From Thermodesulfobacteriota bacterium (lineage in GTDB: Bacteria; Desulfobacterota; BSN033; UBA1163), in contig JASEHH010000003.1 of assembly GCA_030017685.1 (NCBI GenBank), positions 25,319-89,318 of the forward strand: DNA of 64,000 nucleotides. The letters are read 5' to 3'. Below the pieces are notes generated by a model. It was not told the DNA's origin and did not search any database. It was given only the letters and a program-made list of their open reading frames with translations. Positions 2,276 through 60,567 of the stretch are shown here, piece by piece. Positions within the stretch are counted from its first letter, which is position 1; every line of letters starts with the position of its first letter. The position numbers and the translations under genes are program-made.

Positions 2276-2350
2276 TCCCCCTCTCCTCTGGTGCCTGCCC
2301 GCCGAATAAGTTCTTTGGCAGACGGGGGAGAGGGCGGGGGTGAGGGGGAG
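2276..2350. repeat. GC-rich nested palindromic intergenic element (CCCTCTCC...GGAGAGGG family)
   Basis: ccccctctcctctggtgcctgcccgccgaataagttctttggcagacgggggagagggcgggggtgagggggag. The outer arms CCCTCTCC/GGAGAGGG and the inner segment aagttctttggcagRcggg recur at 21385. The tail gagggYKggggtgaggggga recurs at 44481. Confidence 0.45.
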
Positions 2351-9767: not shown

Positions 9768-9881
9768 TGAAATGCCAAAATTCAAAGTTCAAATGTCAAA
9801 CCAAATCTAAGGCTCAAATACCAAAAGTCTTTTATTTCGGATTTTGACATTTATTTGGCATTTGAACTTTGACATTTGACA
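9768..9881. repeat. long imperfect palindrome (about 115 bp) in the hemE-pepA spacer
   Basis: aaatgccaaaattcaaagttcaaatgtcaaa ... tttgacatttatttggcatttgaactttgacatttgacatt. The arms are reverse complements of each other (aaatgccaaa/tttggcattt; caaagttcaaatgtcaaa/tttgacatttgaactttg). Confidence 0.45.
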
Positions 9882-11378
9882 TTATGGTTTGCTACTCCAA
9901 TCCCTCAGCATTTGGAGTAGCAACCTCACCCCAACCCCTGTTCCCCCTTTGGGAATATAGGGTCTTTCTTTTTCAATATGAGCTGGACCTGCAATATCCA
10001 GATGGACCCAGGGTGTCTTTTCAACAAACTTACTCAAAAAAATCCCTCCAATGATCGTCCCTGCAGCCCGGGTCCCAACATTTCTGAAATCCGCAGTATC
10101 ACTCTTAAGATAATCAAAGTATTCATCCCAGAGGGGCAACCGCCAAACCTTTTCTCCGCTTCTGGAGGCTTCCTCGATCTTTTTTAAGAGCGTGTCATCA
10201 TTTCCCATAATGCCGATCACATAATCTCCCAGGGCGATCACGCAAGCTCCGGTTAGGGTTGCCAGGTCGATGATAGCTTTTGGTTTATAACGAAGGCTGT
10301 AGGTCAGGGCATCTGCAAGGATGAGCCTTCCCTCTGCATCGGTGCTGATTACCTCAACGGTCTGACCTGAAAGGGTCTTCAACACATCACCCGGCTTATA
10401 GGCCTTTCCGCTCGGAAGATTTTCAGTTGCCGGAATAATCCCCACCAAATGAAGAGGAATCTGGAGCTGGGAAGCTGCCTGCAGGGTGGTCAAAACTGCC
10501 GCCGCCCCTGACATGTCGTCTTTCATCCTCTCCATATTTTCTGAAGGCTTAATCGAGATTCCACCACTGTCGAATGTGATTCCTTTCCCCACCAAAGCGA
10601 TGGTATCCAGCTTCTTCCCTTTATTATATTCCAGAACGATGAATTTCCCGGGTTCCTGGCTCCCTCGGGCCACAGCCGCAAAAGCTCCCATGCCCATGGC
10701 CTCTGCTTCGCTCACCTCCAACACCTGAATCTCCATGGAGTGATCTTTGGCAATCTGTCTGGCTTTTTCAACCAGCAACATGGGAGTGACCTGATTACTG
10801 GGTCCGTTGACCAGATTTCTTGCTGTGCAGACCGCATCTGAGATGATCGTCCCTTTCCTTGACCCCTCCCCAATGGATTGGATCTCTTTATCGGTCTCTC
10901 CGAGAAGGATCACTTCCTCAATCGTTTTGATCTTTCCCCTTTCAAGTGTCTTAAATTCATTGAACTGGTAAGTTCCAAGCAGAAGTCCTGTGACAAAAGA
11001 TTCAGTGAGCTCCTCCTCGAATAGACCTTTGAATGGTTTTATCTGAAACGCAAATTGTTTGATCCCCGAATCCCTTATAAACTGCCCGGCCTTCGAAGCC
11101 GCTCCTCTCCATTTCTCCAGATCGAACTCCTCTTTTTTGCCGAGACCTGTCAGCAAAACCCTTCTCGCAGGAATCGCCCCCTGGGTATGAATAAGCCGGC
11201 ATTGGAACAACTCCCCCTTGAAATCACCCTGGCTGATGAGTGTGGAGAGGTACCCCTTCCATTCCAGATCAACATTTTTGATTGGCCCCTCCAGGGGTTC
11301 TGGCGATTCAAAAGAAAAAAGAAGGAGAAGTTCGGAAGGATATTTCTCTGCTTTCCCTTGCTCAACCCGAATTTGCAT
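9882..11378 (-). CDS. pepA: leucyl aminopeptidase (M17 family)
   Basis: 498 aa containing the M17 signature NTDAEGRL (VISTDAEGRLILADALTY). Confidence 0.85.
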   Translation of the reverse strand: MQIRVEQGKAEKYPSELLLLFSFESPEPLEGPIKNVDLEWKGYLSTLISQGDFKGELFQCRLIHTQGAIPARRVLLTGLGKKEEFDLEKWRGAASKAGQFIRDSGIKQFAFQIKPFKGLFEEELTESFVTGLLLGTYQFNEFKTLERGKIKTIEEVILLGETDKEIQSIGEGSRKGTIISDAVCTARNLVNGPSNQVTPMLLVEKARQIAKDHSMEIQVLEVSEAEAMGMGAFAAVARGSQEPGKFIVLEYNKGKKLDTIALVGKGITFDSGGISIKPSENMERMKDDMSGAAAVLTTLQAASQLQIPLHLVGIIPATENLPSGKAYKPGDVLKTLSGQTVEVISTDAEGRLILADALTYSLRYKPKAIIDLATLTGACVIALGDYVIGIMGNDDTLLKKIEEASRSGEKVWRLPLWDEYFDYLKSDTADFRNVGTRAAGTIIGGIFLSKFVEKTPWVHLDIAGPAHIEKERPYIPKGGTGVGVRLLLQMLRDWSSKP

Positions 11379-11410: not shown

Positions 11411-11951
11411 ATTTAAATTCGAAGCACTAAATCCGAAATCGCTTAAACTCTAAACACTAAACTCTAAACCCTAAACAAATCCAAAAGCTAAAACTCAAAA
11501 AGTTATTTCGATTTCTCAACAATTGAACCGAATATCTTCGTGAGCTCTGTTGCTTCCTTGATCAAGTTCTGTTTTTCCATCATTTGCTCTTCTTTTGGTT
11601 CGGTTAACTCAAGCCAGTACCCACTCTCTTTTGCCTCTTTTCTTGATATCTTTATTCTCATTACAAAATCCTTTCTACTTAATGCTTCTTCGCCCTCAAT
11701 ATAGTTGGCCCCCACTGAGCCAGAAGCCTTGATAAGCTGTCTTGCGTCTTCTATATTGCTTAAAGTCTTTGGTAAATTCTTCACGTAGTTTCTTACCATT
11801 TTGGCAAATCTAAGCGTCCTGTCCCTTAAATCATACGGTTTTGAGTTTTGTGTTTTGGATATTTGAGCTTGTTTAGAGTTTAGGATTTCGAGTTTAGGGT
11901 TTAACATCTTCGTTTCATCCCGTCTTGGCGTGATTTCAATATTCGGATTTT
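11411..11951. repeat. approximately 540-bp repeat unit, copy 1 (near-identical to 50230..50767), carrying a four-helix-bundle gene
   Basis: Direct nucleotide comparison of 11411-11951 with 50230-50767 shows near identity (a few substitutions, one N/S difference in the encoded protein). This includes about 90 bp 3' and about 45 bp 5' of the ORF. The ends are built from ctaaa(c)-type repeats that are approximately inverted relative to each other. Confidence 0.8.
11503..11907 (-). CDS. four-helix-bundle protein (TIGR02436-like, the 23S rRNA intervening-sequence protein family)
   Basis: 134 aa translating to MLNPKLEILNSKQAQISKTQNSKPYDLRDRTLRFAKMVRNYVKNLPKTLSNIEDARQLIKASGSVGANYIEGEEALSRKDFVMRIKISRKEAKESGYWLEL. 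This is the typical four-helix-bundle pattern. A second copy lies at 50320..50724. Confidence 0.75.
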   Translation of the reverse strand: MLNPKLEILNSKQAQISKTQNSKPYDLRDRTLRFAKMVRNYVKNLPKTLSNIEDARQLIKASGSVGANYIEGEEALSRKDFVMRIKISRKEAKESGYWLELTEPKEEQMMEKQNLIKEATELTKIFGSIVEKSK

Positions 11952-11960
11952 CTCATTAAG

Positions 11961-13166
11961 CTAATCTCTTTCTTTCAGTTTCGATAGGGCAATGGAGCGA
12001 TTCTTCTCGACGGTAGAAAATTCCTTTACCTTTTTTGCCAAAGTGGGAGGCCATCCCCCCCGTTCAAGAATCCTTGCCAGCATCCAGGGGTTCAAATCAG
12101 AAACTTCCATCCACTTTCCGGCGTTCTTGATGAACTCATCCAATGCCTTTCGATTCGGATCTCCCTTCAAGGGATACTTCTCTTTCATCTCGGTCTTAAT
12201 TTTGGCTACATGGTCACTCCCGTAGATAGCCTCTAACTCCTCCCGTTGAGCATAAGCAAAGAGAGCTTCCTCCACTCTGGCCAGCTCTGCATCAATCTCT
12301 CCAATTAAAATCCCCTTCTTTTCTTTCAGTTCCACATATCGGTTGACCAGATTCACCCCTTCTTCCTGAAGATATTCATTCGGGGGAAGACTCTCCGCCA
12401 CAATCCGATGCCTCCGTTTTGGACAGAGACTCTGATAATCACACCAGCTACAGAGGGGGCTCTCTTGGGGAGAAAAATCCCTGTCTGACTCGATCTTCTT
12501 GATGAGTTCCATCGTCTCCTGCCGGAGTCGTTGAAGCTCCTCAGGAGTTCTCAGAGATTGAACCTCCACATCGAAGGCAAGATAGTGCCAGATCAATTTG
12601 ATTTCCTGTATATCTTTCCATTTTCCCTCCACCCCCATTTGATAGAAGGCCAGCTGTCGGTCTGATTGGACGTCTCCCTGGGTCGGGAGTCTACTGGAGG
12701 TTTTATAATCGTGAATCTCGAGGATAGAGTGGTCCGAGAGTGCAAGACGATCAATCACTCCCCTGATCCAGTACCCCTTTTCCTCTTCGAGGGGAAAATA
12801 GATGGTCTCTTCAAGGCCCAATGTCCTTCCCTGGTCAAAGGGATAATAACGTTTGTAATAGTCTGTGATGCATTTTTCTCCCAGACGGCGATAGTCTTCC
12901 GCATGGTATTCCTTTCTGATGATCTGAACCGACTCACTCCAGTTCTTCTCCCAGCATTGATGATAAAAGGCAAGAAGTTCTTCGAGGGTATTGAGTTTGG
13001 TCATCTTCAGGTCACGGTAGAGCTTTTCCAGGGCATCGTGAACCCTCGAACCCATGAAAGCCTCAATCCCTTCCGTATCCATCTTAATTTTCTGGATGTA
13101 GTGAAGTCGATATTGATAGGGACAGGTTTGATAGGTGGAGAGCTGGGAATGGGAATACGCTGGCAT
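11961..13166 (-). CDS. PD-(D/E)XK nuclease superfamily protein, Cas4/RecB-like with Fe-S cysteine motif
   Basis: 401 aa. The N-terminal SQLSTYQTCPYQYRLHYI plus the C-proximal CSWCDYQSLC give the 1+3 cysteine pattern of Cas4/AddB-type nuclease domains. The core contains D/E..K-like residues. Confidence 0.65.
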   Translation of the reverse strand: MPAYSHSQLSTYQTCPYQYRLHYIQKIKMDTEGIEAFMGSRVHDALEKLYRDLKMTKLNTLEELLAFYHQCWEKNWSESVQIIRKEYHAEDYRRLGEKCITDYYKRYYPFDQGRTLGLEETIYFPLEEEKGYWIRGVIDRLALSDHSILEIHDYKTSSRLPTQGDVQSDRQLAFYQMGVEGKWKDIQEIKLIWHYLAFDVEVQSLRTPEELQRLRQETMELIKKIESDRDFSPQESPLCSWCDYQSLCPKRRHRIVAESLPPNEYLQEEGVNLVNRYVELKEKKGILIGEIDAELARVEEALFAYAQREELEAIYGSDHVAKIKTEMKEKYPLKGDPNRKALDEFIKNAGKWMEVSDLNPWMLARILERGGWPPTLAKKVKEFSTVEKNRSIALSKLKERD

Positions 13167-13276: not shown

Positions 13277-14068
13277 ATGGATAGGATGGACTCAGAAAAA
13301 AAGTTGGAAAAACTACAGGAAAAAATAATTCGGTGCCGAAAATGTCCAAGGCTGGTCAATTATTTAAAAGAGGTTCAGGACCGCAGACCCAGGCGATACA
13401 GGGAATGGAACTACTGGTCTAAACCCCTTCCCAGTTTTGGAGACCCGAAGGCCCGGGTTCTTATCATCGGTCTTGCGCCTGCGGCCAATGGGGGAAACCG
13501 GACAGGAAGAATGTTTACAGGGGATCGGAGTGGAGAGTGGTTGTTTGAAGCCCTTCACCGTTTTGGCTTTGCCAATCAACCCAATTCGGCTAGACGGGAT
13601 GACGATTTTGCCTTAAAGGATTGTTACATCACAGCAACGGTCCGCTGCGCTCCTCCGGATAATAAACCCCTGCCCGAAGAGATTGAGAACTGCCGACCTT
13701 ATGTCTTAGAGGAACTCAATCTTTTAAAAAATGTGAAGGTCCTTATTCCGCTGGGACAGATCGCTTTTACACAAACCCTAAAATCTCTAAGGTTAAAAGG
13801 ATACGATATTCCCCCTTTATCTTTTGGCCATGGGAAGTTCTATTCGATTTCAAAACTCCGAACTCCTGACTCCCTGCCTTCGCCGAAACGCTACGTGCAG
13901 GCAGGCGAACTCCGAACTGTCACTCTAATTACAACCTACCACCCGAGCCAGCAGAATACCTTAACCGGCAAACTCACCAGACCGATGTTCTATAAGATCT
14001 TTAAAATGATTTGCTCCGAACTCCCCGCCTACCGGACGGGCAGGCGAGCTTATAGCTCCGAACTTTAA
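13277..14068 (+). CDS. uracil-DNA glycosylase, family 4/5 (Fe-S type), carrying two in-frame repeat-element insertions
   Basis: Translation contains CRKCPRL, GLAPAANGGNRTGRMFTGDRSG and the C-terminal HPS motif (TTYHPSQQ). Two palindromic elements with duplicated flanks are embedded in-frame at 13854-13918 and 14013-14064. Confidence 0.75.
   Translation: MDRMDSEKKLEKLQEKIIRCRKCPRLVNYLKEVQDRRPRRYREWNYWSKPLPSFGDPKARVLIIGLAPAANGGNRTGRMFTGDRSGEWLFEALHRFGFANQPNSARRDDDFALKDCYITATVRCAPPDNKPLPEEIENCRPYVLEELNLLKNVKVLIPLGQIAFTQTLKSLRLKGYDIPPLSFGHGKFYSISKLRTPDSLPSPKRYVQAGELRTVTLITTYHPSQQNTLTGKLTRPMFYKIFKMICSELPAYRTGRRAYSSEL
13854..13918. mobile_element. MITE/REP-like palindromic element (CCTGCC...GGCAGG core) with 11-bp target-site duplication AACTCCGAACT, inserted in-frame in the UDG gene
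   Basis: The sequence reads aactccgaact | cctgactccctgccttcgccgaaacgctacgtgcaggcaggcg | aactccgaact. Element plus duplication add 54 bp (18 codons) and the reading frame is preserved (adds LRTPDSLPSPKRYVQAGE). Confidence 0.55.
14013..14064. mobile_element. second palindromic element with 10-bp target-site duplication GCTCCGAACT at the UDG C-terminus
   Basis: The sequence reads gctccgaact | ccccgcctaccggacgggcaggcgagcttata | gctccgaact, then ttaa. The 42 bp added equal 14 codons in frame, and the stop lies immediately after. Confidence 0.5.
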
Positions 14069-14071
14069 TTT

Positions 14072-14338
14072 ATGATCGTTCACCTTCCCATTGAAGACTG
14101 GCTCGATCTTCACACCTTCTCGCCGAAAGAGATCCCTTCTCTTTTGGAGGAATACCTTGGGGAATGTCAGAGGAAGGGGCTTAAAGAGGTTCGGATCATC
14201 CACGGAAAAGGTAAGGGAGTGCAACGAACTATCGTCCACTCCCTTCTCGAGAAAAATCCTCTTGTCGAATCCTACAGACAGGCTCTCCCTGAGGCAGGTT
14301 CATGGGGTGCTACGATTGTCACTTTGAGAAGACAATAG
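14072..14338 (+). CDS. Smr domain protein
   Basis: 88 aa containing the Smr-like block VRIIHGKGKGVQRTIVHSLL. It starts 4 nt after the UDG stop. Confidence 0.6.
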   Translation: MIVHLPIEDWLDLHTFSPKEIPSLLEEYLGECQRKGLKEVRIIHGKGKGVQRTIVHSLLEKNPLVESYRQALPEAGSWGATIVTLRRQ

Positions 14339-17992: not shown

Positions 17993-18076
17993 TTTGACTT
18001 TGGATTGTGGAATGCGGAATTCGGAATGAAATAAGAATAAAATTACAGACCATGTGTTAGGAAGGGTTTCATAAGA

Positions 18077-21271: not shown

Positions 21272-21299
21272 AGCTCCCCGTGCTTCCGCAGGGAGCATT

Positions 21300-21420
21300 T
21301 TGACGACTTCGGCGAAACCCGCCGAAGCATATCCGCCTTCACTGACCCGCCCGCCGAACCTGCCTTCGCCGAAACGCTTCGTGCAGGCAGGCAAGTTCTT
21401 TGGCAGGCGGGAGCTTCGGC
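21300..21420. repeat. nested palindromic element (CCTGCCTTCGCCGAAACGCTTCGTGCAGGCAGG core) in the iadA-peptidase spacer
   Basis: cttcggcgaaacccgccgaag is a hairpin. cccgcccgccgaacctgccttcgccgaaacgcttcgtgcaggcaggcaagttctttggcaggcgggagcttcggc is nearly the same core as the element inside the UDG gene. Confidence 0.5.
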
Positions 21421-21493
21421 AGATACCTTTTCCACATTCATCCCCATTCTTCTGGACGGGGCATCCTGCGAAGGCGGGTGAGGAGAAAATCGG

Positions 21494-26029: not shown

Positions 26030-26105
26030 ACGATGAACCACATTTATTTTTCATCGTTCATCGTTCATTGTTCATGGTTCATCGTTTATCGTTCATCATT
26101 CATCG
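26030..26105. repeat. heptanucleotide tandem repeat (TCGTTCA, about 9 copies) between convergent genes
   Basis: catcgttcatcgttcattgttcatggttcatcgtttatcgttcatcattcatcgtcat. Confidence 0.7.
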
Positions 26106-26582
26106 TCATATTGTAATGATTTCCCCTTCGATCTTTTCTCCGATGTTTAGAATTCCAAGGGTGGCACCATGCCAGAAAGAGCGAGTAGGAGAGCCGGGGT
26201 TGAAAAAAAAGCTGTTCTTCACCCGGTGATTGGCAGGAGCATGGGTATGGCCATAGATGATCGCATCCACCTCATCAAATTCGTCTCTGATCCTTGACTC
26301 GATTCCGAAGGGCGCCCCGCCTCCGTGAATCAAACCTATTCGAAATCCCCCTAATTCAATGACCTGTTTCTGCGGAAAGACCTTCCGGATTTCATAAGGG
26401 TCCATATTCCCGCAAACAGCAATCAACTCTTTGATTCCAGAAAGGTATTCTGCAACAGACCAACTTACAAAGTCCCCTGCATGAACAATCTTCTCCACAT
26501 CCCCGAAATGGAATTCCATCATCTTTTTGAATTCAGAATTTGGTTCCCTTAAATGCGTATCGGAAAGGACACCAATCTTCAT
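26106..26582 (-). CDS. metallophosphoesterase, YfcE/MJ0936-like
   Basis: Translation shows MKIGVLSDTHL, GDFV, GNMD and GHTH motifs of calcineurin-like phosphoesterases. The start at 26582 is the internal Met (the track ORF begins at 26645). Confidence 0.7.
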   Translation of the reverse strand: MKIGVLSDTHLREPNSEFKKMMEFHFGDVEKIVHAGDFVSWSVAEYLSGIKELIAVCGNMDPYEIRKVFPQKQVIELGGFRIGLIHGGGAPFGIESRIRDEFDEVDAIIYGHTHAPANHRVKNSFFFNPGSPTRSFWHGATLGILNIGEKIEGEIITI

Positions 26583-42346: not shown

Positions 42347-42831
42347 TTACAGCCTCCTCTGAGATGGAAAGTCGAATGTGGAACGCGGAGGGTGGTTTTT
42401 AAAAAATCTGCTTCTACTTTCCACATTCCACTTTCCACACTCTGATGTTATAGATACCAAAATTTCCATGCCCAAACAAGAAGTTTTTAGAAGGAAGCAT
42501 CTCCAATATCGTGATGACAGAATGGACTCCAGAGGGGCAGGTAGGCCAGACTCCGAAATCTTTAGGATTGCGGATCATTAGAGGTTTAAGGGAAACTTTC
42601 GTAGTCAATGGAAATGAGGTTTTTATTGGTCTTGGAGCATCTTGAGTCAATCCTTAAGCGGTGCCGCCCTAAATCTTTCCCGCCTGCCCCTCTGGATTTG
42701 GCATTCCCATGGATTTCTATCACTGGAAAAGAGATGCTTACTTTTAGAAAAACACAATGGTATTTTGGACGAAAAAGAGTTAAAATTGTTGTTATGTTTA
42801 ATGGGGGGAAGAGATAAATCATGGAGGTGAA

Positions 42832-44439: not shown

Positions 44440-44590
44440 ATAATCTGATTGTCTCCCTCTCCACTGGCGGGAGAGGGTTGGGGTGAGGGGGAACAGGCGA
44501 TGGTTACCCCCACCTCAATCCTCCCCCCTGCCTACCGGCCCCGGTCCCGACCGAGGGCGGGGCAGGCAGGCGTCGAGGGGGAGGATAAAG
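44440..44590. repeat. cluster of GC-rich nested palindromes (CCCTCTCC/GGAGAGGG and CCTGCCTACCGG...GGCAGG families)
   Basis: tctccctctccactggcgggagaggg (compare 5875-5910), gagggttggggtgagggggaa (compare 2321), and cctcccccctgcctaccggccccggtcccgaccgagggcggggcaggcaggcgtcgagggggagg. Confidence 0.45.
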
Positions 44591-45556: not shown

Positions 45557-45612
45557 CTCACAATTTTAAATGATTCATTCCAGGCTTAAATTGACATTTT
45601 GATTCTGCAATC

Positions 45613-45692
45613 CCTGCCTACCGCAGGCAGGCGAATTCCGCCATGCACCACGTTGGGTGCATGGCAGCCCTAAACCTCACATGGTTTAGGGC
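45613..45692. repeat. three consecutive perfect hairpins in the trm112-lpxL spacer
   Basis: cctgcctaccgcaggcagg, gccatgcacc-acgtt-gggtgcatggc, and gccctaaacc-tcacat-ggtttagggc. Confidence 0.5.
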
Positions 45693-45883: not shown

Positions 45884-46155
45884 CGTTATCCTCCTTTTAA
45901 AAATTTCGTTTAACGTAACCCCTCAGTTAAAGAGAGAAAAAAGGGTCGGGAGGTTCTTCTGGAAAAACCTTGAAGCGAAACCTCTATCCGTTAAACTGCT
46001 TAGGTTCGTTTCCTAAAACCACCATGCAAAGGACAGGATGGCTGGTTCGCATAACCTCTATGATCGCTTTTCAAGGTTTTGGAAGGAGAACCTTCCGACC
46101 CTTTCTGGTCAAGTACCTCCCATAAGCGAGACATTACCGCCTGACCTACCACTTT

Positions 46156-46740
46156 CTACTTTCTACTTTCCCTGTTAAGAATCCACTGGACCGCCTCAAA
46201 AAGGTCCTGAGCTACATAATCCGGCTTTGACTTCCATTGTTCTCCGAAATATTCCCGCTCCCCTTTGCCATATCCTGTGAGGACCAGAATGGTCTTTGCC
46301 CCAATCCGATGGCCAAATTCGACATCCGCCCCCCGGTCCCCGATCATATAACTTTTAGAACAGTCGATCTCCAGATCCTTCACGGCTTCTTCGATCAGAC
46401 CCGTCTCAGGTTTTCGACACCGGCATTTCTGACGGTATGGAGGCTCTCCTGCATCGGGATGATGGGGGCAGTAATAGATTCCATCGAGATGTGCTCCTGC
46501 ATCCCTTAAATGGTCTTCCATCTTCCGGTGGACCAGGTGGATTAAGGACTCCGGGAAATATCCCCTTGCCACACCCGCCTGATTGGTGACAACAACGACC
46601 TTTATCCCATTCTGGTTCAATAACCGGATCGCCTCACCGACTCGGGGAAGTAGTCTAAACCGTTCGAGATGATTCACATACCCCATCTCTTCATTAATCG
46701 TTCCATCCCGGTCCAGAAAAACCGCCCTGTGCCTCCCCAT
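46156..46740 (-). CDS. gmhB: D-glycero-beta-D-manno-heptose 1,7-bisphosphate 7-phosphatase (HAD-IIIA)
   Basis: Translation shows AVFLDRDGTIN, VVVTNQAGVARGYF and the CRCRKPETG Zn-binding motif. Start taken at MGRHRAVFLDRDG. Confidence 0.75.
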   Translation of the reverse strand: MGRHRAVFLDRDGTINEEMGYVNHLERFRLLPRVGEAIRLLNQNGIKVVVVTNQAGVARGYFPESLIHLVHRKMEDHLRDAGAHLDGIYYCPHHPDAGEPPYRQKCRCRKPETGLIEEAVKDLEIDCSKSYMIGDRGADVEFGHRIGAKTILVLTGYGKGEREYFGEQWKSKPDYVAQDLFEAVQWILNRESRK

Positions 46741-46841
46741 CCCCCTATCTCCCTCTGACCGTGTCCCATAAGTCATCTGCTGGACACAGGGAGACGGGGT
46801 ATAATTGGTTCAATTGAGGCTCCAACATAACATATTTGTGT

Positions 46842-46915
46842 GTCATTCCCGTGAAAACGGGAATCCAGGACCAACAGGAAATACCTGGATTCCTGCTTCC
46901 GCAGGAATGACAAAC
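46842..46915. repeat. REP/MITE-like nested palindromic element (about 74 bp)
   Basis: gtcattcccgtgaaaacgggaatccaggaccaacaggaaatacctggattcctgcttccgcaggaatgacaaac. Three internal hairpins (attcccg/cgggaat, ccagg/cctgg, ttcctgc/gcaggaa) sit inside the outer gtcattcc/ggaatgac arms. Confidence 0.55.
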
Positions 46916-46997: not shown

Positions 46998-47828
46998 TCA
47001 GTATCTCCCTATCTCCCCATCACCCCATCTCCCTAACTCAAACCGATCCGGAGGCGTGAACCTCAGGAAGGACCGGTGGACCATCCAGTCTCCCACATTG
47101 AAATAGAGACATCTCTTTCCGTCTATCCGCTCCTCCATCTCCTCCGGAAAGTGGGAGTGGCCAAGAATCACCCTATCAAAACCCTCTAAAAATTTTTGAT
47201 GGGCAAAGCTTTTGAATTCCGGAGGCGGGCCGGAGGAAAGGACGGCATGATTTTTATGATAACTCCTTTGACTGAGCCACTTCGCAACATGACGGGAGAA
47301 TCTGGGACCAACTCTCTCGATAAGACCGTAGGTCCACCGGTTCTTGATCATTCTCCGGAAGGTCCGGTATCTCCATAGTTTCGGATTGGATAAGTCTCCA
47401 TGAGAGATAAAAACCCTTCTTCCTCCCAGCCGCTCCTCATTCCCTTCAGGATAAACCTCCACCTCCATCCCGAATCTTTCTGAGAAGAAGGAGTGGAGGA
47501 AGAAATCGTGATTTCCCTCAAAATATTTGATTCGAATCCCCCGGCGAAATAAGTTTTGAAGACCTTCCAAAATGGGAAGGTAATCTGCAAAAGGAAAGGG
47601 CTTCCCGCGGGCAGGATTATCTTTAAAACCGAAGAGAAATTCGAACAGGTCACCCAGGATCACCAGATGGTCCATCCGCTCCTTCTCCGAATTTAAGAAT
47701 CTGAGAAAGACCTCCATCGCCTCGGGTTCTCTTCCACTAAAATGGGCATCGGAGACGAAGATCCAGTCCTTTTCAGTTTGAGTCAATATAAATCCTTCCC
47801 GTAATTCTTCAGTCTCAACTAAAACCAA
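46998..47828 (-). CDS. metallophosphoesterase, UDP-2,3-diacylglucosamine hydrolase (LpxH)-like
   Basis: Translation shows calcineurin-like motifs (DAHF, GDLFEF, GNHD, GHSH). Lies in a lipid A/LPS-core neighbourhood. Start uncertain. Confidence 0.55.
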   Translation of the reverse strand: MVLVETEELREGFILTQTEKDWIFVSDAHFSGREPEAMEVFLRFLNSEKERMDHLVILGDLFEFLFGFKDNPARGKPFPFADYLPILEGLQNLFRRGIRIKYFEGNHDFFLHSFFSERFGMEVEVYPEGNEERLGGRRVFISHGDLSNPKLWRYRTFRRMIKNRWTYGLIERVGPRFSRHVAKWLSQRSYHKNHAVLSSGPPPEFKSFAHQKFLEGFDRVILGHSHFPEEMEERIDGKRCLYFNVGDWMVHRSFLRFTPPDRFELGRWGDGEIGRY

Positions 47829-50167: not shown

Positions 50168-50229
50168 CTCTTAAATGAATCTCCAACACTCTCCTGTTGA
50201 TTTCCGAATCAACCGCTATCCTAAAAGGT

Positions 50230-50767
50230 TTAAATCCGAAGCACGAAATCCGAAACCGCTTAAACTCTAAACACTAAACTCTAAACCCTAAATAAATCCA
50301 AAAGCTAAAACTCAAAAAGTTATTTCGACTTCTCAACAATTGAACCGAATATCTTCGTAAGCTCTGTTGCTTCCTTGATCAAACTCTGTTTTTCCATCAT
50401 TTGCTCTTCTTTTGGTTCGGTTAATTCAAGCCAGTACCCACTCTCTTTTGCCTCTTTTCTTGATATCTTTATTCTCATTACAAAATCCTTTCTACTTAAT
50501 GCTTCTTCGCCCTCAATATAGTTGGCCCCCACTGAGCCAGAAGCCTTGATAAGCTGTCTTGCGTCTTCTATATTGCTTAAAGTCTTTGGTAAATTCTTCA
50601 CGTAGTTTCTTACCATTTTGGCAAATCTAAGCGTCCTGTCCCTTAAATCATACGGTTTTGAGTTTTGTGTTTTGGATATTTGAGCTTGTTTAGAGTTTAG
50701 GATTTCGAGTTTAGGGTTTAACATCTTCGTTTCATCCCGTCCTGGCGTGATTTCAATATTCGGATTT
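50230..50767. repeat. approximately 540-bp repeat unit, copy 2 (near-identical to 11411..11951), inserted between rfbB and rfbD
   Basis: Nucleotide-level near identity with copy 1 across the ORF and both flanks. Confidence 0.8.
50320..50724 (-). CDS. four-helix-bundle protein (TIGR02436-like), second copy
   Basis: 134 aa. Identical to the 11503..11907 product except for one residue (N/S). Confidence 0.75.
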   Translation of the reverse strand: MLNPKLEILNSKQAQISKTQNSKPYDLRDRTLRFAKMVRNYVKNLPKTLSNIEDARQLIKASGSVGANYIEGEEALSRKDFVMRIKISRKEAKESGYWLELTEPKEEQMMEKQSLIKEATELTKIFGSIVEKSK

Positions 50768-51845: not shown

Positions 51846-51992
51846 TTAAATCCGAAATCCGAATATCGGGCGAAGCTTCCCGAAGGGATCAATCCGAAAC
51901 AAATCCAAAATCCAAATGACTCAATTTTCAAAACGTTACATTAATTTCTGTTTTATGTGTGATTGGAATCTTTTTCGGATTTCGGATTTCGT
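51846..51992. repeat. long-range inverted repeat in the rfbC-rfbB spacer
   Basis: ttaaatccgaaatccgaa (51846-51863) and ttcggatttcggatttcg (51975-51992) are reverse complements. An internal hairpin cgggcgaagcttcccg is also present. Confidence 0.45.
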
Positions 51993-52012
51993 GCTTCGAA
52001 TTTCCGATTTTG

Positions 52013-60414: not shown

Positions 60415-60567
60415 AAGTTCGGAGTAGTTTAGTTCGCCTGCCTTCGCCGAAGCGGCTTGCCTACATTGAAGCTTTAGCACAAGCAGGCTACGCGCAGGCA
60501 GGTAGTTCGGAGTCTTAAATCTTCTATGTCTTTTTACTCCGAACTCCCAACTCATTACTCCGAACTG
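60415..60567. mobile_element. CCTGCC...GGCAGG palindromic element flanked by TAGTTCGG duplications, plus a tandem TACTCCGAACT pair, at the hisI/DUF72 junction
   Basis: The sequence reads agttcggag tagtt tagttcg | cctgccttcgccgaagcggcttgcctacattgaagctttagcacaagcaggctacgcgcaggcagg | tagttcggag ... tactccgaactcccaactcattactccgaactg. The last motif supplies the C-terminal SSE-stop of the DUF72 gene. Confidence 0.5.

Follow-up and report, generated by a model that had tools for sequence, protein, structure and literature searches.

Untagged REP-like hairpins at a common junction of heptamer arrays inside a uracil-DNA glycosylase gene of a Thermodesulfobacteriota bacterium

The subject of this report is a gene for uracil-DNA glycosylase (UDG) in a Thermodesulfobacteriota bacterium, which lies within the 64,000-nucleotide stretch of contig JASEHH010000003.1 (GenBank assembly GCA_030017685.1, positions 25,319 to 89,318) that we analyzed and that is referred to here as the window. 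The gene carries two short tandem arrays of the (ACTCCGA)n type, and each of these pre-existing arrays has been entered by a very small GC-rich hairpin, 33 nt long in the first array and 21 nt long in the second. Comparison with related loci reveals exact indels, a common insertion junction, a turnover of hairpin families at that junction and the nesting of some hairpins within others. The explanation that we favor, and consider probable, is that these are selfish hairpins akin to the repetitive extragenic palindromic (REP) elements, although without the REP end tags, which were inserted seamlessly into the heptamer arrays and have been tolerated in permissive segments of the protein.

Four copies of CTCCGAACT and the two hairpins lie within the UDG open reading frame (ORF), all of them in frame, as a preliminary description of this DNA had already recognized. 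The window as a whole contains eight copies of CTCCGAACT as compared to 0.65 expected, a number that 0 of 100 shuffles reached, and the other four copies are located at 60416-60566. Around the first hairpin, AACTCCGAACT is found at 13854-13864 and again at 13908-13918; around the second, GCTCCGAACT is found at 14013-14022 and again at 14055-14064, shortly before the UDG stop codon (14066-14068). The spacings of 54 and 42 nt given for these two pairs in the preliminary description are right, but the inserted DNA amounts to 33 and 21 nt. The first insert encodes LPSPKRYVQAG, and its boundary is ambiguous by 1 nt, such that 13873-13905 fits equally well. It folds with a 7-bp outer stem and an inner stem at -7.9 kcal/mol, whereas a nearly identical intergenic copy at 21359 folds at -10.3 kcal/mol (z -2.8); the weaker fold of the copy in the gene is due to a single T-to-A change (F to Y in the peptide). 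The second insert has a weak stem (z -1.06), and the outer stems of the two inserts are 5-7 bp. The intragenic copies are decaying. Like REPs, the inserts are imperfect palindromes in the 20-40-nt range that form stem-loops; neither has the unpaired GTAG or CGTC tag of REPs at its ends, which are flanked instead by ACTCC and GAACT, and it is for this reason that we call them untagged.

DNA was retrieved for 88 related loci (designated here by L numbers), and the comparisons cover 85 non-identical orthologous gene sequences. For the loop insert, L081, with 88% identity to the window over the core DNA, provides an exact empty site. It keeps all four heptamer units and reads AAACTCCGAACTCCTGACTCC followed directly by GAACTCCGAACTGTC, and a single 33-nt block between identical flanks sets the window apart from it (alignment A2). 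The C-terminal site is empty in L092 and L093, which read CTCCGAACTCCGAACTCCTAACTCCGAACT (SELRTPNSEL-stop) and are without the 21-nt block that follows ACTCC in both the window and L081, while L083 has a different 21-nt hairpin in place of the window's second insert (alignment A3). The middle unit of the C-terminal array is GCTTATA in the window and ACTCATA in L081 and L083. Throughout the clade, empty loops consist of (CTCCGAA) arrays of 1-4 units that translate as LRTPNSELRT. The junction is ACTCC^GA for both inserts, with no duplication, and microhomology at the indel boundaries does not exceed 1 nt; therefore, heptamer slippage does not explain the indels. The flanking repeats had been taken for target-site duplications, but both copies of each are already present in the empty sites of L081, L092 and L093, and they are therefore neighboring units of a pre-existing array rather than products of insertion. 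The element boundaries that accompanied that view had taken in array DNA, including CTCCTGACTCC, which is still there in L081. The companion proposal, that an alignment of orthologues would reveal lineage-specific in-frame indels, was borne out, in that L081 is without the loop hairpin, L092 and L093 are without the tail hairpin and the inserted segments are not conserved protein sequence. Across the loop, the reading frame is intact in every one of the 88 assembled orthologues.

At least 11 hairpin families occupy the ACTCC^GA(ACT) junction among these orthologues. They include CTGCCCCGATTTTGTCGGGGC in the loops of L083 and L086, CCCGATAGAATCGGGGCAGGC in L085 and L087, CTGCCTGYCSGACAGGCAGGY in L088 and L107, a 45-nt hairpin (family E) in L090 and a 33-nt hairpin (family K) in L140 and L155, with GTAGGGAACGGTTTCAAACCGTTCCCTAC, GTAGGGAACGCAGATCTGCGTTCCCTAC and GTACGGGCGATTCATGAATCGCCCCTAC among the others; families F-I are GTAG...CTAC palindromes in which the GTAG is paired. 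Nested hairpins are found in the loops of L084 (a 30-nt hairpin within the loop of the window's family A), L102, L138 and L142. Six loop states (empty, A, A with a nested hairpin, B, C and E) are found even among sequences whose core-DNA identity to the window is 86% or more, and the inserts of close relatives encode entirely different peptides. Along a neighbor-joining tree of core DNA the hairpin states have a patchy distribution, and among close relatives loop states assort independently of tail states. Altogether, ~50 copies of the 11 families were counted in 86 UDG genes, including copies inherited by descent and hence not a number of independent events, as compared to six copies in the ~435 kb of DNA that flanks these genes on their contigs. 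Some tails are more elaborate than that of the window: those of L088 and L091 have a GTAGGGGCGATTCATG...CATGAATCGCCCCTAC hairpin whose loop encloses a second element, for an extension of 25 residues, and in L104 a two-unit array shifts the frame, such that the UDG ORF runs into the start of the downstream smr gene.

The host gene is an unbroken ORF with a Pfam UDG match (E 1.2e-28). Its best solved relative is 2D3Y, the UDGb (family 5) of Thermus thermophilus (E 3e-51), which is also the top Foldseek match for the modeled protein, and the sequence scores under the cut-offs of the NCBIfam family-4 models. The UDG fold, a GLAPA-type motif A, an HPS motif B and the proximity to the Thermus enzyme all agree with family 5. 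Its closest relatives, among thousands found by protein search, are 72-90% identical and come from metagenome assemblies of uncultured Deltaproteobacteria or Thermodesulfobacteriota. In the protein alignment (A1), GLAPAANGGNRTG and YHPSQQN are invariant, the latter containing the HPS motif that had been correctly placed between the two elements, and the segment between FGHGK and LITTYHPSQ is hypervariable within conserved surroundings; UDGs of other phyla have a short turn, such as FGHGRVYRLPWGVTLIGSYHPSQQN, instead of the loop array. Against 2D3Y, a 20-residue gap sits exactly in the turn HYPLPGGRHLL, which precedes the strand leading to the motif-B histidine. An AlphaFold model built from 39 close homologues was used for secondary-structure boundaries only. 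It has strands at residues 188-193 and 214-218 with a loop (194-213) between them and a tail that is unstructured from residue 249, and the predicted local distance difference test (pLDDT) score is below 50 for residues 197-210 and 252-263. The first insert falls in the β-hairpin turn that precedes motif B, and the second one in the tail at the C-terminus. Since that turn is at the N-terminal end of a strand whose C-terminal end bears the catalytic histidine, the loop insert would point away from the active site. The protein structure prediction that the preliminary description had called for puts both inserts in low-scoring turn and tail segments, but the model is poor (mean pLDDT 59, template-modeling score 0.5-0.6 to 2D3Y). 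The gene order is also conserved: a PD-(D/E)XK (Cas4-like) nuclease gene (11961-13166), the UDG gene and a gene for an Smr-domain protein (14072-14338), which starts 4 nt past the UDG stop, have the same order in L081 and L082.

The heptamers themselves are maintained as DNA. In the loop, the codons for LRT are CTC (92%), CGA (89%) and ACT (92%); elsewhere in the gene these codons account for 14%, 20% and 12%, and the invariant residues that flank the loop use mixed synonymous codons. The number of exact units per loop varies from 0 to 3 among the 85 sequences, and the head-to-tail units of period 7, varying in copy number, resemble the simple sequence repeats (SSRs) known as short tandemly repeated repetitive (STRR) sequences. 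Slippage can keep such units alike within one genome, but alone does not explain the same unit across species. ACTCCGA is not specially enriched in IMG/VR, where (ACTCCGA)3.4 occurs in 14 contigs and two permuted control heptamers in 14 and 8. Matches of at least 10 nt between the loop and the tail or downstream region occur in 16-18 of the 85 loci as compared to 6-7 in controls, which is only suggestive of a pairing or co-variation of these arrays. In individual loci, the loop array of L151 is made of CCTCAGT, with an array of the reverse complement, ACTGAGG, immediately past the stop codon, and in L135, L146, L148 and L161 the downstream array, AGTTCGG, is the reverse complement of the loop heptamer; the sharing of 7-mers between loop and downstream arrays is only modestly above control. 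Such cases hint at a coupling of the two arrays, by recombination or pairing.

More than 15 other period-7 arrays are distributed over the window, mostly at or overlapping the 3' ends of genes and some of them in inverted pairs. Examples of these arrays, some of period 8, are at 9853-9883, 18009-18028, 26050-26106, 42412-42439, 46151-46170, 47002-47039 and 51848-52010, and one inverted pair consists of AAATCCG at 51848 and TTTCGGA at 51973. Inverted heptamer arrays, TAAACTC on one side and GTTTTGA and GTTTAGA on the other, also flank both copies of a 134-residue 23S rRNA-intervening-sequence/four-helix-bundle gene (PF05635, TIGR02436) at 11412-11911 and 50229-50724, which are 97% identical over ~300 nt. 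In L081 and L082 the syntenic pepA-PDDEXK spacer is without the first copy; the second lies between rmlD and rmlB. With heptamer arrays at its borders, the gene has the look of a small mobile cassette.

Copies of the hairpins are dispersed beyond the UDG gene (Table 1), as the preliminary description had proposed, and its suggestion of a site preference involving CTCCGAACT is likewise supported. The 33-nt core of family A, CCTGCC...GGCAGG, recurs with one mismatch (0 expected) in the spacer that separates the genes for an amidohydrolase and a peptidase C26. The 78-aa ORF noted there at 21361 does exist, is intergenic and runs through the copy; this spurious ORF is explained by at least three reading frames that are free of stops through this sequence. 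The related hairpins previously noted at 45613 and 60437 are there too, at 45613-45631 and 60437-60502, the latter being a 66-nt long variant of family A in a composite whose direct heptamers overlap the stop of a DUF72 gene, and two additional copies, of families E and K, were found. Intergenic copies in the window are thus known for families A, D, E and K and as a rule sit within the loops of other hairpins, and only the two UDG copies are intragenic. In total, the 64 kb counted hold two family-A copies, one long variant and approximately eight CTGCC-type hairpins; a census that required perfect 7-nt arms from C[CT]GCC missed true stems, returned mostly chance matches and was discarded. Outside of the arrays the junctions are similar, i.e., ATCC^GAAT at 45613 and ATCC^GAAA in L155. 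The family-A core, as a CCTGCCTTCGCCGAAGCG...CGCTTCGCGCAGGCAGG hairpin, is also present in four unrelated IMG/VR contigs of 51-69% G+C (L199-L202). These viral-classed contigs were retrieved by DNA pattern and not by UDG homology, L200 has a cluster of related hairpins, and this hairpin family appears to extend well beyond the clade studied here. Several intergenic regions of the window (21272-21493, 2276-2350, 44455-44582 and 46838-46915) are packed with nested GC-rich palindromes of other families, such as CCCCCTCTCC...GGGAGAGGG, CCTCCCCC...GGGGGAGG and TCATTCCCGTGAAAACGGGAATCC, and here again hairpins tend to occupy the loops of other hairpins. Rfam gave no matches in the window, and a search of 5.8 billion proteins with the six-frame family-A peptides, a query too short for the word index and hence uninformative, returned 8 word-sharing candidates, none with E <= 10.

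Table 1. Coordinates of the UDG gene, its heptamer arrays and hairpin inserts, and related elements elsewhere in the window
Feature	Positions	Strand	Basis
UDG host gene, family-5 (UDGb)-like, 263 aa	13277-14068	+	Pfam, 2D3Y, Foldseek
Loop heptamer array, left (ACTCCGA ACTCCTG ACTCC)	13855-13873	+	read directly; units also in L081
Hairpin insert 1, family A, 33 nt, CTGCCTTCGCCGAAACGCTACGTGCAGGCAGGC	13874-13906	+	exact 33-nt indel vs L081
Loop heptamer array, right (GA ACTCCGA ACT)	13907-13918	+	read directly; L081 comparison
Motif B (YHPSQQ), between loop and C-terminal arrays	13937-13954	+	invariant in alignment A1
C-terminal heptamer array, left (GCTCCGA ACTCC)	14013-14024	+	read directly; orthologue comparison
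Hairpin insert 2, degenerate family-D member, 21 nt, CCGCCTACCGGACGGGCAGGC	14025-14045	+	indel vs L092 and L093
C-terminal heptamer array, right (GA GCTTATA GCTCCGA ACT)	14046-14064	+	read directly; orthologue comparison
Family-K hairpin, intergenic, nested in CCCCCTCTCC...GGGAGAGGG	2294-2325	-	same family in L140, L155 loops
Family-A copy, intergenic, nested in loop of hairpin CCCGCCCGCC...GGCAGGCGGG	21359-21391	+	32/33 identical to insert 1
Family-E hairpin, intergenic, nested in CCTCCCCC...GGGGGAGG	44527-44571	+	z -3.5; same family in L090 loop
Family-D hairpin CCCTGCCTACCGCAGGCAGGCG, intergenic, junction ATCC^GAAT	45612-45633	+	z -3.2
Composite, intergenic: inverted ACTCCGA heptamers (AGTTCGG), family-A long variant, direct ACTCCGA heptamers	60416-60566	.	

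In the explanation that we favor, the UDG gene has two short ACTCCGA arrays, one in the β-hairpin turn before the catalytic motif B and the other at the extreme C-terminus of the protein, and each would have been invaded between ACTCC and GA by a REP-like hairpin from a dispersed family. The hairpins may be selfish or neutral passengers, of which only those would survive whose length, in combination with the heptamer copy number, keeps the reading frame, and only in segments of the protein that tolerate additional disordered residues. Their movement would be scarless and site-specific and would resemble the single-strand transposition carried out by HUH/Y1 enzymes (of the IS200/IS605 or RAYT type) 3' of a short target. 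This resemblance is suggested by a short and specific 5' target, the lack of a duplication, the exact empty sites and the hairpins as possible recognition elements. Several observations weigh against this explanation. The ~43 window ORFs include no transposase, RAYT or Y1_Tnp match, which, in a sample as small as 64 kb, says little; these ORFs are housekeeping genes, syntenic with L081 and L082. The conservation of the heptamer as DNA across species is not explained by simple neutrality. The sampled hairpin families are rare outside of UDG, and families F-J have been seen only in UDG, which makes a locus-specific process possible for the latter. In addition, the copy numbers of the hairpins rest on the 64-kb window and the sampled contigs rather than on a whole genome, and, given the poor model, the surface exposure of the inserts is judged mainly from the alignment to 2D3Y.

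A stronger form of the same idea, which we put forward tentatively and as a possibility rather than an expectation, is that the conserved intragenic array is a landing pad dedicated to 21-45 nt hairpins, a guild of which inserts and excises seamlessly at ACTCC^GA. If so, the UDG loop would be a natural record of more than 10 independent mobility events and would offer a handle on the machinery that moves untagged REP-like hairpins.

The main alternative to HUH/Y1-type transposition is that the hairpins have spread without any dedicated enzyme, by template switching or short-homology gene conversion between arrays or hairpin loops, with slippage maintaining the arrays. A possible donor is the long family-A variant at 60437, which has the same heptamer on its flanks; heptamer arrays are abundant at the 3' ends of genes, the independent assortment of loop and tail states suggests recombination, and loop matches with tail or downstream sequences are in excess over controls. 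The closest family-A copy (21359), however, has no heptamer flanks, many unrelated families use the identical junction and the indels, with their near absence of microhomology, are not deletions in the register of the heptamer. On balance we regard a spread of this sort as unlikely.

It is also conceivable, though we would give it little credence, that the variable loop or the repeats have a function, be it as a diversifying surface loop (for example, one that escapes a UDG inhibitor), as RNA hairpins that regulate the UDG-smr operon or as a slippage-driven frameshift switch that turns UDG off and creates a contingency mutator. The last of these, in which arrays and hairpins modulate UDG as an on/off mutator switch, is the more speculative. 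DNA-level conservation of the heptamer amid otherwise mixed synonymous sites is what such a function might produce, a change of 7 nt does shift the frame, as the contraction of the L104 array does for the C-terminus, and intragenic REPs have been reported to be over-represented in repair genes (PMC3733652). Yet the frame is kept across the loop in 88 of 88 assembled orthologues, the inserted peptides, which are predicted to lack order, bear no resemblance from one close relative to another, the hairpins fold less strongly in the gene than in intergenic DNA and the same sequences are found in non-coding DNA.

The original proposal of two MITE-like transposons (miniature inverted-repeat transposable elements), each of which would have created a 10-11-bp duplication of a CTCCGAACT-containing target, must now be considered very improbable. 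Perfect direct repeats of 11 and 10 nt do flank the hairpins, and the elements have palindromic termini. However, L081, L092 and L093 keep both supposed duplicates along with the heptamers between them, and differ by the 33-nt or 21-nt hairpin only; the flanking repeats are units of arrays of 1-4 copies throughout the 85 orthologous sequences, and the copies at 21359 and 45613 have no such duplication. At 33 and 21 nt, the inserts are also far below the size of MITEs (~70-300 bp, with 15-30-bp terminal inverted repeats). An assembly or sequencing artefact, for which there is only the general tendency of repeats to confuse assemblers, has a negligible chance of being the explanation, as the same family-A insert is found in independently assembled proteins P0001 (JGI), P0002 (NCBI) and P0003 (ENA), and dozens of independent contigs have the array and hairpins in frame.

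The in-frame insertion of a REP-like element into a repair gene is already known. What is new is the conserved heptamer landing pad within a gene, the occupation of one exact junction by at least 11 families and the exact empty sites across dozens of genomes. The spread of REP-like hairpins is still poorly understood and clean comparisons between filled and empty sites are scarce, and this locus combines exact empty sites, an invariant junction, many families and nested events across ~85 related genomes. We believe that it provides strong comparative evidence for the scarless and site-specific gain and loss of elements of 21-45 nt. It also indicates that a tandem heptamer array can last for a long evolutionary time inside a catalytic domain, kept as DNA and not as protein. 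Intragenic REPs reportedly tend to lie in genes of DNA repair, and the locus adds to these a gene of base-excision repair. For annotators, it is a reminder that such repeats make lineage-specific loops and spurious small ORFs.

Among known systems, MITEs are likewise non-autonomous elements with inverted-repeat ends that belong to dispersed families and now and then give rise to in-frame fusions, but at 70-300 bp (PMC3733652), with long terminal inverted repeats and target-site duplications, they are about ten-fold larger and leave a mark that is lacking here. The Rickettsia palindromic elements (RPEs), with which the window elements were originally compared, are palindromic repeats found in frame in housekeeping genes, where they encode peptides compatible with the fold of the host protein (Ogata et al. 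2000, 2002, cited after PMC10969869). The analogy holds as far as in-frame behavior is concerned. RPE-1 is ~100-150 bp long, with a conserved peptide, and belongs to the Rickettsia lineage, whereas the elements here are 21-45 nt, belong to many unrelated families at one hotspot and reside in a Thermodesulfobacteriota-like lineage of free-living anaerobes. With lengths of 21-33 nt and peptides that differ between close orthologues, the window inserts do not belong to RPE-1 to RPE-10, and the rarity of such insertions outside of Rickettsia had been overstated, as intragenic REPs are known from several species (PMC3733652).

Heptameric repeats of Xanthomonas and Nostoc are over-represented, mostly intergenic, near the ends of genes and sometimes in inverted pairs (PMC4692102). 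The window has the same pattern of period-7 arrays near gene ends as these SSRs and the cyanobacterial STRR sequences, but the UDG loop array differs in its location within a catalytic domain, in its conservation as DNA from species to species and in its host lineage, which is Thermodesulfobacteriota rather than cyanobacteria. Small dispersed repeats of Nostoc are reportedly mobile hairpins of 21-27 nt that nest in one another (Elhai et al. 2008). The Y1 HUH transposase TnpA of the IS200/IS605 family inserts its element 3' of a short specific sequence without target duplication, excises it seamlessly and recognizes hairpins (PMC3116915, PMC6006769). The likeness to that family is drawn from the anatomy of the junction; here we see single hairpins without distinct left and right ends, and no accompanying transposase gene among the window ORFs.

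The window elements are best named untagged REP-like hairpins. REPs, and with them REPINs and RAYTs (PMC3116915), are among the closest known systems. Both the window elements and REPs are 20-40-nt GC-rich imperfect palindromes, REPs form dispersed families, as the window elements probably do, and several hairpins in the orthologous UDG loops even start with GTAG and end with CTAC. In the REP/RAYT system, the RAYT gene is flanked by REPs, for which the window ORFs, with no Y1_Tnp match, offer no counterpart. REPs are usually located just downstream of ORFs and sometimes in frame within genes. Intragenic REPs with GTAG or CGTC tags, many of them in replication and repair genes, have been described in several species (Di Nocera et al. 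2013, PMC3733652). The same study reports REPs that lie within target palindromes and, in orthologous recB genes, different REPs at roughly one site. What sets the UDG gene apart from these precedents is that its host site is a tandem heptamer array, in which at least 11 families of hairpins share one exact junction.

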